NCBI GenBank assembly: GCA_026023565.1
Contig: JAPETS010000014.1
Coordinates: 186,001-250,000 of the forward strand
Reading direction: 5' to 3'
Origin: Cirrosporium novae-zelandiae
Lineage: Eukaryota
Length of the DNA stretch: 64,000 nt
This document shows positions 39,492 to 47,026 of the stretch, one piece after another. The notes under the pieces are model-generated. The model was not told the origin of the DNA and searched no databases. It was given only the letters and a program-made list of their open reading frames with translations. Every line of letters begins with the position of its first letter. The first letter of the stretch is position 1. The position numbers were made by a program, and so were the translations under genes.

Positions 39492-40574
39492 TCACGGCCA
39501 GGTCCCCCCCATAATAGGAAACTCCAACCGCCTATGCAACCTCCTCACGATCTCCAAATAGCTCCTCTCACCCTCGGGCACAATCTTGCCATGCCTGACT
39601 AAAAAGTCCACCAACACAAGCGCACAATTCGGCTTAAACTCCCCTTTACCCATACGCAGCTTAACCTCGTCTACATCCATGAGCTCAAACCCCTCGGCCT
39701 CCCCGTCCCCAGGCTTCGGGATCACGTCCTCCGGAAGCGGCAGGTCATACACGAACTGGTTCTCCGGCATCGGCAGGCCCGTCTCCCCGCCGGCGCGGGA
39801 GTCCCGTAGATGAAAGTACGTCACGACACCCACGGCACGTGCGAGACCACGTACGAGGGCTGGGGGCAGGGAGGCCTCCTCCTCGCTCTCCCGGACCATG
39901 GTCTCGAAGGGAGACTCCACAACGCCGGAGGCGCTGATGGAAATCCCGCCTGCGACTGAGTTGTCTAGCATAGATGGATATGTCTGCTTCGTGGCGGAGC
40001 GCCGGGGCACCCAGATGCGCAGACGAGGTGCACTCCCGCTCTCGTTTGCGCTACCTGCCACGTACGCTGTCATGTGCACGCCGTAGGTCACGACCCCGAA
40101 GAGCGGCGCCGCCGAGCGCTCGATGCTAAAGAGGAGTTCCCCCGACCGTCCGTACACCGGGAATAGCTCATTGCGCCAACCCTTGAGGAGTTCAAACGTC
40201 CCGCATTTGCGCGCTAAGCTGGTGGTTTCGGCGATTAAGGCGGAGGTTTTAGCGGGTGTGGAGGTCAGCGGTGAAGGGAGGGTCAGGGTGAGAGTGTGGC
40301 TGGTGTGGTCGATCATCCAGTAGGAGGGCCAGGGCAGGTCGTTGATTGTGCGTGTAGTTAGGTAGCCTAGGGGTACGGTGGGGTCTGAGGATAAATGGAG
40401 CGTGTAGAGTTTTGAGATGGTGAGAGTGTGGAGGGGGCTTGGGGCATAGGGGAATCTAGGAGGGGGAGAAGAGGGTTAATTAAATGAGAGGGAGGAAGGT
40501 GGGGGATGTGGGGGGGGGAGGGTGGAACGTTACTTATCGCATTCGTTTATAAGATCTAGAGAAGATTTCATCAT
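39492..40574 (-). CDS. Nudix hydrolase, thiamine-pyrophosphokinase-related (YJR142W-like)
   Basis: MKSSLDLINECD exon + intron; GWRNELFPVY, ERSAAPLFGVVTYGVHM, WVPRRSATKQTYPSMLDNSVAGG, Nudix RESEEEASL, FKPNCALV. Confidence 0.9.
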
Positions 40575-40853
40575 GAAGGTGGGGGTTCGTTCGGGTAGAC
40601 CGTCGTATATACTTACTTACCTAGGTACTATACTCGGGGCGGGGGGAAGAAGTCAGTAGCTTAATGGATTTTTGACTGCTAGATATCAAAAAATATAAAG
40701 TAGGTAAATAGATAGGTCGATGGATCGATAGGTTGATAGCTAGATAGCTAGTCCTTCTAGCGTAGCTTCTTCCTCTTGTCCTTATTCTTTTTTTTCTCAC
40801 ACCCTCAGCCTATAATAATTAATTAATTAATTTCCCCAAAACCAAAAGATTTA

Positions 40854-40877
40854 TTCTTCTTCTTCTTCTTCTTCTTT
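40854..40877. repeat. (TTC)n microsatellite in a low-complexity intergenic tract
   Basis: ttcttcttcttcttcttcttcttt, near (ACTT)n and (TAGA)n-like runs at 40610-40750. Confidence 0.85.
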
Positions 40878-41886
40878 CGAAATCTTCAAAACAGCGGAGT
40901 TCTTCCTCCTTTTAAATATTTTTAAAAGGAATCTTTATCTGTTTGTTACAATCAAATCGCCTTGTGTACTTGTTGTAATCGTCATTATGTATGCCTGCAT
41001 GTATGTATGATATTCTTCACCTTAGGGATCCCTATTAGAGGTGTATGTGTGTGTGTACTGTAGGCCTGAGGGATGCCTACAGTACTGTGGCGCGATTAAG
41101 GTGTCTATTTTCTACTGAGGCACCGATTTAGGCCTTTAACCGAGGGTCTTGGCTCTGCCGCCCTCAACAGCCCTCCCTCTTACTTGAGCATCCGTAAGTC
41201 AGGTCTACTACAATAGTCTTTTTGGGTTATTCCTATGAAAGGGGAAGATATTTGTTTTATGTAATTATTAAAGCGTAAAGAATCGATAGAACCCTTAGAC
41301 TATGGATAATAGTAGTTCCGGCTTGCGCCAAGCCAGGCGCGTGCTACGCAAGAACAACTTCCTTCCTTTCTTCGTAGATCAGAACTCTTCGGTGGCAATC
41401 TTTTGCATATATCATACATCTTACTTGCATACCCCAGTTCTCGCCTCACACGTAACATATACCCCCCTGAGATTGCAACCGCAATCTTATTATCAGACAG
41501 TGTAGTAAGGATAGCTGATTACTATCTAGCAGCTACAGGAGGGCCGGCAGTCGAAAAAATATCTCCCTCCTGGCTCACAAGTTTGACTCGTTGGGAATAC
41601 CGCCAGCCAAGCACCATGTTGTTTTCAAGTTCAAAAGAATACAAACAGGCGAAAATCGACAACGTTAGGATGAGTATGCGAGATGAATGGGTAAGTGTCT
41701 TCGATAGTTCTGAGGGAACTCGTGTAGGAGGGCATTAAACTTGAATGGTAATCATAAGATTACAAACAGGCAACCCTAGTTTGAACGGAAAAAGGAGAGA
41801 TCGCAATACAATTTAGCTGTTATGGAACGGCTGTGGAGACAGTATGCCTTAATGCATAGAGGTGATGTGTCATTCGAAGGTCATTC

Positions 41887-44800
41887 TCACGCGCCCGCTG
41901 CTTTCAATCTTTCCACAATTTCTAAGTGATCTCTTTCAGCAGCTTCTTGGAGCGCAGTTCGTCCACCAAATCCAGTAGCAGCAGCATTAACATCCGCTTT
42001 TGCTGCTAATAATTTTTCCACAATTTCTAAATATCCTCCTGCAGCAGCTGCTTGGAGCGCAGTTCGTCCATAATTTCCAGTAGCGGCAGCATTAACGTCC
42101 GCTTTCGCTACTAATAGTTTTTCCACAATTTCTAAATATCCTCCTGCAGCAGCTGCTTGGAGCGCAGTTCGTTTATAATTTCCACCAGCAACAGCATTAA
42201 CATCCGCTTTCGCTGCTAACAGTTTTTCCACGATTTCTAGATTACCTGTTTCAACAGCTATTTGGAGCGCAGTTCGTTCATAACTTCCAGTAGCAATAGT
42301 ATTAACATCCGCTTTCGCTGCTAATAATTTTTCCACAATTTCTAAATATCCTTCTGCAACAGCTGCTTGGAGCGCAGTTCGTTCATAATTTCTAGTAGTA
42401 GCAGCATTAATATCCGCTTTCGCTGCTAACAGTTTTTCCACGATTTCCAGATTACCTGTTTCAACAGCTGCTTGGAGCGCAGTTCGTCCATAATTTCCAC
42501 CAGCAGCAGCATTAACATCCGCTTTCGCTGCTAACAGTTTTTCCACGATTTCCAGATTACCTGTTTCAATAACTGCTTGGAGCGCAGTTCGTCCATAACT
42601 TCCAGTAGCAGCAGCATTAACATCCGCTTTTGCTGCTAATAATTTTTCCACAATTTCTAAATATCCTCCTGCAGCAGCTGCTTGGAGTGCAGTCCATCTA
42701 CTATGTTCATCAAAAGTAGCAGTATTGACATCAACGTTTGCCGCTAGCAGTTTTTCCACAATTTTTAGGTCACCTCTTCCAGCAGCTTCTTGGAGCACTA
42801 TAGCTGTATCTGCTGTTAAAACATTACCTATTTCAAGAAAAATTTCAAATAGTGCCATGTTGCCTTCTGCAGCAGTAGATTTCATGAGTCCCGTTTTGAT
42901 TTTCCCTGAAAAAGGTCTATCGCTGCTCTCAATGAAACGCAACAAAGCTTTATGTTGTGTATCACAGATCCATTCTCCAACATTGCGATCGCGTTGGATG
43001 AATTGCTTGTAAGTCCATGGGGTCTGACCTAGACAATGTTCGCTAAGTATCAATTTCTTCCATTGATTCCAGGTCGTGGAATATTTTTCTTCGAACCTAG
43101 TACTGTGCAATAACCAGTATTTTGATGCGTACTTGAGAAATGGGTACCCAAGCTGGAGCTTGTTCGTGGAGTCTCCATCGCTAGCCTCGCTGCAACCAAT
43201 TAATCCCTTCATTGGATTGATTTTATTAGCTTTTTGAGAATTTTTTGCCATGAATGGGTGGAGCAAAGACGCTGCAATCGTTGATTCCAATCCAGATCCT
43301 AGGGCCGTTTTTACAATTGCCCTAGGTGTTATAGAACGGTTAGGTTTGGTTCGTCTGGTCAATTGAGTCTTGAAATCGTTGAAATTAAGATACGTGACAC
43401 AAATCTCACCGATTTCATGGTCTGCTACTGATGACTGAATGTGAAAATCGTTGGGTGATGTGTCCGGAGGCCCCGAAAGAAAAAATTGCTTCACTGTATG
43501 ATGTGCAAACTGGACAGCCTCTGTTTCTTCATCTATCAAGATTAGATTTTCGCACCATGCGTTGATACGATTCACACCATTCATAAGTCTCTCTGGCTTC
43601 GAATAAGGTTGACCAGGCTCAATGGCAATAGCCTCGCGAAGCTCCTCAAGAGATAATGGTCGTTTTGCCCCTGCTACCCAACGAAACACTTGCTTGGCAA
43701 TCTGTGCATGTCCACGGGTAAGGATTCGCAATAACGCACGATTGAATGTCTCTTTCAAGTCCTTAGGAAGGGTTTTAAGGGTTTTACGGATATCCTCATC
43801 ACAGCATTGTGCGCATATATCGTCAAGCTGGAAAGCAACCCAGAGGAACCTAACAGAATGAGCTTAAACGTAGACGCATTGCAGAGAAACCACTGACATT
43901 CCTTGCGCACCTTGGACAAGTGCATTTTGGATATTTTCGACTAGATCTATGTCCCCGACAACAAGGTCTTCGGTGCTTAACCTTTCATCTATTACCTCCC
44001 GGGTATATGTTACTATATCGGAATGGGCCTCAGGAGAACCCATCGAAACGTGCTGTCGGGATGTGAACCATCTCTTTATCTCTTTATCTATACTCTCACG
44101 GCCCGCAAGGAACACCTTTGCATTCGATTGAGGTGACGCAATAACAGATGAGAGAATACTGAAAATGATCTCGCGTTCGCTCTTTTCGCATTCATCTAAT
44201 GCATCAATGATAATATAGAATGTCCGAGATATGGCAATTCGTTTTTGCAACAAAGTTTGCAGATCTTTGATTCCAGTTATGGGACTCTTTGTGATATTTA
44301 TCAAACAGGACTCGAGATCGTTGGGAAAGGTGGCATCATCCAGATTCTCCAAAGACTGTCGGATAATAGATCTAAGTATTGTTTCTGCCTGCAAGGAAGC
44401 ATCTTCATCAAAACGAGGGAAAAAGTATACAATGCACACTTCAGGGCCAGGCGGGTTCAGGAAGAGATGGCTAATAACGTTCGCTCTACGATCTAATCGT
44501 CAGCAAATGTTTTATTGGTCATCACAGGAACAACCAACGTGAGTATTGTTTTGCCAGATCCAACTAGAAAGTAACGATTAGCACTGGATAGACCGACTGA
44601 AAACTTGTTTTCCTTACTTTTTCCAGAGCACCAAAATACGGCAGATCCAGTCTCTTTGTGCCATCTATCAAATCTCGAGGTTTGAACTAGCCATTGCGCT
44701 GTACCAACATGACATTTCTTACGAGCCTGCTTAAAGGCTGTACAATGGTCATAATCAGAGAGGGAATCCAAAAGCTTCTGCTTTCGGGCTCCTAAAGGAT

Positions 44801-45722
44801 CGTAAGTCTACTGACTATTACCTCATATTGATACTTACTAGAGCTCCACTCATCCTTTTGTAGCCGTCGTTCTGAAGAATCATCGATGTTTTTATTGATC
44901 CGTGAAAAAATAGATATCGCTGTGCTTCTATGGCTGGATGCTGCTTTTTGTTCTAGAGAAATCGCCTGCGCTTTGGCAAAAGATATTTCTCTCTTCACTT
45001 TTTCGCTACATCCCCGAATTTCAGCCTTAAAAGGCTCAATCTCTGCCTCGAACGAACGACATAACGCATTCATAACTTGTTTTGGCCCTGGTTTCTATTA
45101 ATGAGTATGCTTTTCGAAATTTAGCGTTGCGATGATATTTGACTTGCATGGCCTTTCAATTAACTGCAGGGCTTTCTTGCAGCAGCGAATGATTGATGCA
45201 TAGAAATCGCAGAGCGCATCCTGCAGTCGAATAGAATGTGGATATAAGCTCTGATATTCAGAAAATCGGGGACAAAGCTCCGTGAAGCCCATGAACAATA
45301 TAGAAAGCTTGTCAAAGTAGGAAATAAAGTTTGCGACGATCTGACCCCAGGATTAGTAGTTATTATGGATTGGGTGATTATAGAAAGTACGGGAAAAGAC
45401 TAACAAGCATAGTAAGCTTCACGCCTCCCCACACTAGCGCGCCGATATTCGGGTGTGATGAGATAAAGGTGTCAGAAATGGAGGTAAATTGTTGGACCGA
45501 CTGAAGGAAAGAGTGAAAGCGACTAGCAATACTAGGTCCTCTTCTTTTCATGTTTGCAAGGTCAAGTTGGGCGGTAAAGGTGACCACTGAGCCAACATCA
45601 GGTACAGCTTTAATTTTTCGAAGCTCGTTATTCTGATCAGGGGTGAGAGAGTCCTGGAATTCTTGCATCGCATTTTGAAGTGATTGGCCGATACTGCCAG
45701 GCGTGATTAATTGAAGAGACAT
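41887..45722 (-). CDS. Fungal NLR: N-terminal helical (Goodbye/SesA-like) domain, NACHT NTPase, ankyrin repeats
   Basis: Six introns splice to one open frame; Walker A WCSGK|IGSGKTILT, Walker B IIIDALDEC, GM|FLWV, winged helix (RPLSLEELREA, FAHHTVKQF), about 9 ANK repeats TALQAA..G.LEIVEKLLAAKADVN. Confidence 0.92.
41947..42681. repeat. Seven tandem 105-bp coding repeats (35-aa ankyrin units) with high internal identity
   Basis: Anchor ttggagcgcagttcgt recurs at 41947, 42052, 42157, 42262, 42367, 42472, 42577, with degenerate copies at 42682 and 42790. Confidence 0.97.
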
Positions 45723-46276: not shown

Positions 46277-46915
46277 CTCCTGTCACGCAGTCTCTCCTCT
46301 CTGGACTCTCAACACCATGCCAAGACTAGCGTAAGAATTTTTTTTGCTACCTAGTCTTGTTGTTATTTTTGTTCGTCATCTTGCAAAACCTACAGTCCCA
46401 TTAAGCCTAAAAAAAATTCAATATCCATTTATTATATTTTGAGGGTTAGGGGGGGGAGGGGGGAGTTAGAAGCAGAAAATCCAAAGTGCCCAAATGCATA
46501 TATACCTAGCTATTTATATAGGCAGGTAGGTGAGTTGGCCCTCCTTGGCAGAGTAAAGATTCAATGGGCTTCTATTACTCTAACTACAGTATTATATATC
46601 AAATCCTACTCTCCATTTCCCACCCAATAATTAATAGAATCTAATATAGATAGATAACCGACGAGTTATCACATATTAGAGGAGGCTCCAGACAAGGACA
46701 TAAAGCTAACGATATGATTTGCCTTCCCTACCCCACACATCTTCAACTCTCTTTCATAATGCCAAATATTGAAAATTAAACATTAAACATTAAAGAATTT
46801 TCATGATAAAGATAACGTGAAGCATAATAATCGAATCAGAAGCCCGTTTTTTTTCGGCTTTGTGTTTGTATTTGCTTTTTGCTTTTGCTGGCTGGAGGGA
46901 TGGAGAAAGGAAAAT

Positions 46916-47026
46916 GAAAGGGAAAGGGAAAGGGAAAGGGAAAGGGAAAGGGAAAGGGAAAGGGAAAGGGAAAGGGAAAGGGAAAGGGAAAGGGAAAGGG
47001 AAAGGGAAAGGAAAGGAAAGGAAAGG
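46916..47026. repeat. (GAAAGG)n microsatellite, about 16 copies, decaying into (GAAAG)n
   Basis: Directly visible polypurine tract. Confidence 0.97.

Follow-up and report, generated by a model that had tools for sequence, protein, structure and literature searches.

In Cirrosporium novae-zelandiae we found an intact fungal NLR gene of the NACHT-ankyrin type whose sensor array shows high internal conservation (HIC). In this array the substitutions private to single ankyrin units are rich in GC>AT changes and, once positions of ambiguous polarity are masked, consist of transitions only. The reading which we judge most likely, and which we hold tentatively, is a light footprint of a RIP-type process on the HIC ankyrin array that was filtered by selection. 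RIP as a diversifier of NLR repeats is already in print (2007, 2014, 2026); new in the present case are the host lineage and the signal between the units of one ankyrin sensor.

The NLR gene, its ankyrin array and its surroundings

The gene is located in a window of 64 kb, i.e., the whole stretch of DNA that was analysed, and its features are compiled in Table 1. The first-pass annotation of this DNA had described the NLR as intact, and this description holds. The reading frame is open across all ankyrin units. At the N-terminus the match to PF24809 (E=0.0039, 17.5 bits) stays below the Pfam cut-off of 25; the same family is present in many homologues of the NLR. The nucleotide-binding domain was recognized weakly by the model PF05729 NACHT (23.2 bits vs a cut-off of 26.7). 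Its Walker A motif, which is predicted to be split by an intron, reads GKIGSGKT in the protein P0047, and its Walker B motif is DALDE. The C-terminal ankyrin repeats match PF00023 Ank with E=5.2e-51. P0047 (1107 aa), which carries the NCBI name hypothetical protein, Cirrosporium novae-zelandiae, is 100% identical over the array. The source record of P0047 is labelled MAG. The nearest non-repeat homologues of the NLR, from Coniosporium and Endocarpon, show 54-58% identity, so that there is no close paralogue or orthologue which could serve as outgroup or as RIP duplicate partner. The unit type GRTALQAAxxGGxLExVExLLAAxADVNA also occurs in NLRs of many Pezizomycotina.

Table 1. Features of the NACHT-ankyrin NLR gene (positions within the window).
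Feature	Position	Strand	Remarks
Whole NLR gene	41887..45722	-	predicted start codon ~45722-45720, stop 41887-41889; several introns (ORF pieces)
First exon, N-terminal domain	45381..45722	-	weak DUF7708-like match PF24809
NACHT-type nucleotide-binding domain	43867..44700	-	PF24883 NPHP3_N, E=2.4e-31, P0047 residues 221-387
Winged-helix domain, after NACHT	43474..43722	-	PF22939 GPIID_WHD, E=9.1e-10, last-exon ORF residues 48-130
Degenerate leading ankyrin units u-1, u0	42697..42890	-	u0 = 42801-42697
Seven full 105-nt (35-aa) ankyrin units u1-u7	41959..42693	-	u1 42693-42589 ... u7 42063-41959, codon register
Terminal partial ankyrin unit u8 and stop codon	41887..41958	-	

The array is part of the last exon of this multi-exon gene on the minus strand. 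A tandem period of 105 nt was detected by TRF at 41896-42796 (8.6 copies, 83% matches), together with a super-period of 315 nt (88% matches). The seven 105-nt units which had been annotated in the first pass were retained, but the codon register shifts the array by 12 nt. Two classes of units can be distinguished: Class A comprises u1, u4, u6 and u7 (AAAAGGYLE) and class B comprises u2, u3 and u5 (AVETGNLE). Pairwise identity of the units amounts to 79-95%, and to 89-95% within a class; self-identity of the array is 86.0% over 630 nt at a shift of 105 nt and 89.5% over 420 nt at a shift of 315 nt. Five silent class-defining transitions, with A/T always in class A, had suggested that class A might be a “more mutated” form of class B. 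This idea of a mutation order between the classes was dropped, the unit sequences of u0 and u8 giving mixed polarity.

The window is otherwise gene-dense and of housekeeping character, with genes encoding UvdE, eIF2B, Nup49, Fip1, Rpb8, a RabGAP, a kinesin and others. Transposon families gave no Pfam match in the 58 ORFs that were scanned (of 102 ORFs of at least 100 aa in the window), and an AT-rich or RIP-like tract was not found in the 64 kb. The stretch 40181-40915, which has the highest composite index of the window (0.36), was considered as a possible leakage of RIP into the 3' flank and rejected as RIP evidence: It is ordinary low-complexity intergenic DNA, and other intergenic stretches score similarly.

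Spectrum of the unit-private substitutions

Among the seven units 34 of the 105 alignment columns vary. If only strict 6:1 singletons are taken (n=17), there are 12 GC>AT transitions, three AT>GC transitions and two transversions, both of which are located in the last loop of u7. For a class-wise polarisation, the columns 62, 87, 88 and 94 (ambiguous polarity, or mosaic in u3) and the columns 93, 94, 96 and 97 of u7 were masked. After masking, 20 columns with 24 unit events were left (13 G>A, six C>T, three T>C, two A>G), with polarity set by majority rule in a small sample. Counted per column, 16 of the 20 are GC>AT and four are reverse transitions; no transversion is left, a count which hinges on the masking, since the eight masked cells contain four transversions and four transitions.

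The observation of private changes that are GC>AT-rich and transition-only was thereby confirmed with small corrections. The first-pass annotation had counted about 21 changes, and its numbers of C>T or G>A changes (about 19) and of A>G changes (two) agree with ours; the total is 24, as three T>C changes in u6 had been missed. Its statement that transversions are absent holds for all 20 columns once the eight cells are masked, about half of the GC>AT unit events (9/19) are in CpA or TpG context as it had said, and most changes do alter the protein, 15 of the 16 GC>AT columns being amino-acid-changing. Two further claims carried less weight than had been assumed. The events do accumulate in the units 3-6 (20/24 in u3-u6), but the deviation from a uniform spread is not significant (chi-square P=0.16-0.22). 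Likewise, the stop-generating targets are spared, with no CAA or CGA mutated, but this is uninformative (P(0)=0.53), as about 0.60 events would be expected for the seven CAA codons and 0.13 for the CGA codons. Strand asymmetry is absent (G>A in 11/16 columns vs 62% G, P=0.80).

For comparison with chance, null models were set up from every single-base path open to the inferred ancestral units, with kappa (the per-path transition/transversion rate ratio) ranging from 1 to 6 and a GC>AT bias ranging from 1 to 3. Across these models the probability of at least 16 GC>AT columns among 20 was 1.6e-10 to 0.019, and that of no transversion among 20 was 4e-9 to 0.014 (non-synonymous changes allowed at variable codons only). 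A transition-only, GC>AT-rich spectrum is unlikely under ordinary mutation spectra.

The private changes also differ from older changes in the same domain. Class-defining columns show eight transitions and five transversions vs 20 and none for the private changes (Fisher P=0.0054). Compared with the invariant columns, u0 shows nine transitions and seven transversions, and u8 shows five and three; in sum, the older differences in the ankyrin domain comprise 22 transitions and 15 transversions. As an external control the same singleton procedure was applied to 10 tandem ankyrin arrays, namely those with at least four units among 31 TRF rows, which derived from nine of 59 metagenome loci. These loci had been considered as relatives; with identities of only 26-54% they were used just as unrelated ankyrin-array controls. 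The control arrays, which are older and more diverged (66-88% unit identity), contain 60 GC>AT changes, 49 AT>GC changes and 75 transversions (41%; n=184). Against this background the singletons of the NLR array are enriched in GC>AT changes (12/17 vs 60/184, P=0.0029) and poor in transversions (2/17 vs 75/184, P=0.019). The control spectrum indicates that ankyrin coding constraints alone do not yield a GC>AT-rich spectrum, and nothing beyond that.

All amino-acid-changing events begin at Ala, Gly or Val codons. At the variable codons of these three amino acids 141 of the 154 non-synonymous transition paths are GC>AT, so that the codons largely dictate the bias in direction. What is left as a signal is that transversions are missing; the probability of 15/15 is 3.4e-8 to 0.011. 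Silent events are distributed as expected, with one GC>AT (40 paths) vs four AT>GC (219 paths); GC>AT hypermutation is not visible at neutral sites of the array.

Position in the repeat, silent sites and RIP-specific tests

DARPin chains can be aligned with the array (5le2_A, E=8.2e-76), and the unit positions were mapped via this alignment. Like DARPins and Ankyrin-1 the array has the framework TxLx / GxLEIVExLL / ADVNA. It differs from them in TALQ for TPLH, in two extra loop residues and in the Gly before RTALQ, a residue kept in the relatives inspected, for which u3, u4 and u5 have E, E and K, respectively. Thirteen of the 15 amino-acid-changing columns fall into the inner helix (unit positions 5, 6, 7, 9) or the hairpin loop (27-34), and the other two are position 20 (A>V) and position 25 (V>I). 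Conservative replacements (A>V, V>I, A>T) account for many of the remaining changes, and the relatives vary too at LQ[A/I/T]A[A/V/I]. GC>AT changes occupy 15 of 257 non-synonymous and one of 40 synonymous paths. Purifying selection on the LEIVEKLL core fits the pattern as well as adaptive diversification does. The changes may generate receptor diversity, as the first-pass annotation had proposed. A single-sequence AlphaFold model (mean pLDDT 70, loops <50), which was tried for the mapping, returned a helical solenoid only and added nothing.

Silent sites in the ankyrin domain show a shift to A/T. The array has a GC3 of 0.171, compared with 0.395 and 0.417 for the remainder of the NLR gene and 0.37-0.73 for 11 further ORFs of the window; the drop from ~0.40 to ~0.20 occurs near 42890, where the ankyrin domain begins, with the degenerate units included. 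For a single unit, GC3 corresponds to 4/35 codons in class A (P=0.0002 vs 0.40) and to 8/35 codons in class B (P=0.026). Such a low GC3 fits a long-standing AT-ward pressure limited to the repeat domain, and the amplification of a founder unit rich in AT3 would be equally compatible with it. GC-biased gene conversion, which was considered as the cause of the AT private variants, is contradicted by a GC3 of 0.17.

In the 16 GC>AT columns the context on the C strand is CpA in nine, CpT in four, CpC in two and CpG in one. CpA thus makes up 9/16, with 34% expected from the available C/G sites (P=0.054 per column, P=0.16 per unit event), and CpA and CpT together make up 13/16 vs 67.5% expected (P=0.18); CpA sites show about 2.5 times the mutation frequency of the other C sites (9/105 vs 7/206). 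The first-pass annotation had named a lack of CpA enrichment after composition correction as evidence against its own reading. The excess over expectation is present, but at P=0.054 the result comes close to such a lack. It had also proposed RIP indices, for which the usual cut-offs are 0.89 for TpA/ApT, 1.03 for the substrate index and above 0 for the composite index. With 0.94 the TpA/ApT of the array passes, a value that is reached or exceeded in 31 of 259 windows, but the substrate index (CpA+TpG)/(ApC+GpT) of 1.70, which exceeds that of 255 of 259 windows, and the composite index of -0.76 are both negative for RIP. The observed/expected ratio of CpG is 0.94, and the pattern is therefore not one of CpG decay.

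RIP is a premeiotic process and requires a sexual cycle. The entry on the Cirrosporiaceae in PMC6712537 states “Sexual morphs unknown”, and a report on RIP in Cirrosporium was not found in the literature searched. According to the passage on RIP substrates in PMC1805685, a linked duplication of at least ~400 bp with at least 80% identity is acted upon, and with 86% self-identity over 630 nt the array qualifies as such a substrate.

Origin of the substitutions and comparison with known systems

The RIP reading, which had been put forward in the first pass, is partly supported. It is favoured by the excess of GC>AT transitions, by the AT-rich silent sites of the ankyrin domain and by an array which qualifies as substrate; the non-significant CpA enrichment (P=0.054), the negative substrate and composite indices, the codon-forced direction and the silent events (one GC>AT vs four AT>GC) stand against it. 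We infer that RIP was the mutator and that the process was specific for the array. A RIP-type process that is directed at repeats and turns cytosine into thymine would probably have acted lightly on the array, and selection would then have purged stops and changes in the outer-helix core, by which the surviving changes may have been left in the inner helix and the hairpin loop.

A serious rival, and one that we regard as possible, is ordinary mutation which is transition-biased and mildly AT-biased, combined with small numbers and with a purifying selection that in an Ala/Gly-rich repeat mainly tolerates conservative replacements (A>T, A>V, V>I). By necessity it would produce mostly GC>AT changes at the variable codons (141/154 transition paths), and with kappa=6 the chance of 15/15 is ~0.004-0.011, which would presumably become higher if every second transversion product were also lost to selection. 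The private changes include no conservative replacements of the transversion type (A>S, A>G, G>A), however, and the older differences in the ankyrin domain, at 22:15 vs 20:0, as well as the ten other ankyrin arrays with 41% transversions by the same procedure, are not what this explanation predicts; neither is a GC3 of 0.17 that is limited to the ankyrin domain. Silent events without a GC>AT excess (1/40 paths vs 4/219), the negative substrate and composite indices and the non-significant outcome for CpA enrichment, unit clustering and spared stop targets agree with it.

Deamination associated with repeats may also proceed without a RID-driven premeiotic step, either through 5mC of the repeats and subsequent deamination or through ssDNA during unequal crossover or gene conversion, and its expected spectrum is the same as that of RIP. 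We consider this explanation improbable. The dinucleotide preference is weak, strand asymmetry beyond the G/C content is lacking (P=0.80), and the entry in PMC6712537 gives no sexual morph for the Cirrosporiaceae; moreover, the wording of the 2026 study on Podospora is “methylation- or RIP-induced”, and recombination and repair are also named there as possible sources (PMC13449251). CpG is, however, not depleted in the array (observed/expected 0.94), and the relevant passages of PMC1805685, PMC4986451 and PMC13449251 contain no demonstration of such a process for arrays of this kind. That the array was mis-built from short reads, or that the changes reflect damage (C>T) of the sample DNA, is highly improbable, even if the source record is labelled MAG and read contigs break inside the array. 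Fourteen of the 24 unit-private events lie inside independently built read contigs of the sequencing run X1, at 353-363x, with 0 differences and no alternative letters, which places these variants in the reads themselves; the depth of the flank in X1 is 350x, so that the array has the depth of a single copy. Damage would neither be limited to one array nor outlast a consensus of 350x, and the reading frame is open through all units. The locus is contained in one sequencing run only (share 0.97), and X1 may be the source sample; two further runs of the same study are from other organisms and contain next to none of the locus.

The interpretation as such is already in print. For the WD40 arrays of NWD NLRs, RIP was proposed in Paoletti 2007 as a process which “might further enhance mutation supply” (PMC1805685). 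In Dyrka 2014 the proposal is restated for HIC repeats generally, and variation of ankyrin NLRs from Podospora and Chaetomium is described for the inner helix and the hairpin loop (PMC4986451). For the Podospora species complex, the polymorphism of HIC NLRs is characterized in parts of a study in Genome Biology and Evolution 2026 as “overwhelmingly dominated by C>T and G>A” and partly RIP-driven, with the speculation that HIC plus RIP leads to a faster creation of diversity (PMC13449251).

The HIC NLRs of Podospora anserina comprise the NWD/HNWD WD40 genes (het-d, het-e) and ANK/TPR NLRs such as Pa_3_8560 and Pa_2_8180. As far as these are described in the passages drawn on here, they share with the present gene the combination of a NACHT domain and a superstructure-forming array with units near-identical in DNA, a variation in the inner helix and hairpin loop that is mostly C>T and G>A, and an array whose length and similarity suffice as RIP substrate; RIP is proposed for the sensor there. 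Unlike in Podospora, the host is a member of the Xylobotryomycetes from a family without known sexual morph, the units have 35 aa with a loop that is two residues longer, no flanking transposon was seen in the 64-kb window, and the nearest non-repeat homologue is 54-58% identical. The evidence derives from one allele, compared unit vs unit and not strain vs strain. According to the counting procedure described in the 2026 study, most sensor domains were removed beforehand, whereas here the signal is inside the sensor.

With RIP of Neurospora crassa, as outlined in passages of PMC1805685 and PMC13449251, the array has in common C:G->T:A transitions in linked repeats above ~400 bp and 80% identity. 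CpA is the most-mutated context, and TpA/ApT is raised, here to 0.94. In contrast to Neurospora crassa, the footprint is very light (~19 events in 735 nt) and the gene intact, CpA/TpG targets are still abundant (index 1.70), and the composite index is negative.

A more far-reaching version of the favoured reading, which we consider unlikely, would be that a RIP-type deaminating process is active in the Xylobotryomycetes, an isolated class, in a genus without known sexual stage, and has long acted on an intact NLR sensor array, where it would have driven the ankyrin silent sites to A/T and would still supply variants of the inner helix and loop. The sensor array itself would then be the standing target, vs the flanking domains in Podospora.

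Should RIP-type mutation really act on the array, the idea from Podospora that a genome-defence mutator feeds variation into the repeats of immune receptors would also apply to ankyrin sensors and to a class of ascomycetes which is distant and little studied, and the array would provide indirect evidence for cryptic sex in a fungus known only in its asexual form. As one allele from one genome, the array adds a candidate case and is not a test of this idea.

Gene model of the NLR and its flanks

Between exon 1 of the NACHT-ankyrin gene (NLR) and the next exon lies an open frame which is missing from the deposited protein model P0047 (1107 aa). The homologue P0121 contains a segment matching this frame (…NFTSYFDKLSTLFMGFNKLCPRF…); on this comparison of sequences, an exon may have been left out of P0047 here. 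The start of the gene is preceded by a microsatellite of the GAAAGG type. On the 3' side, intergenic DNA holds the maxima of the window for two composition measures of a RIP footprint, TpA/ApT (1.22) and the composite RIP index (0.36). Short motifs of this DNA recur elsewhere in the genome, and it looks like an ordinary low-complexity spacer.

Features of the window (positions in the window)
Feature	Position	Strand	Location	Details
Short stretch of high depth	38023-38176		Directly upstream of and overlapping start of Rpb8-like ORF	Read-contig matches
Intergenic DNA	40181-41405		3' of NLR	Highest TpA/ApT and composite RIP index
GCA>ATA	42261-42260		Unit u5	Two adjacent transitions
GGA>AAA	42174-42173		Unit u5	Two adjacent transitions
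GCT>ATT	42297-42296		Unit u4	Two adjacent transitions
Open frame	45098-45352	minus	Between NLR exon 1 and next exon	84 aa
Microsatellite	46905-47026		~1.2 kb upstream of NLR start	~21 copies

A deeply covered stretch near the Rpb8-like ORF

Very deep read contigs matched the short stretch at the Rpb8-like ORF in all three sequencing runs. In X1, the run holding the locus, the bin depth was 19,686 compared with ~350 elsewhere, and matching contigs of X2 and X3 reached depths in the thousands. The stretch therefore resembles a conserved multi-copy sequence. It looks like a pair of minus-strand fragments from the 3' portion of 18S rRNA; an Rfam search of the stretch returned no match.

Double transitions within codons of the array

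Paired adjacent transitions within one codon were found in three codons of the ankyrin array, in the full-length units u4 and u5. These twice-changed codons suggest hot spots or selection at the respective positions.
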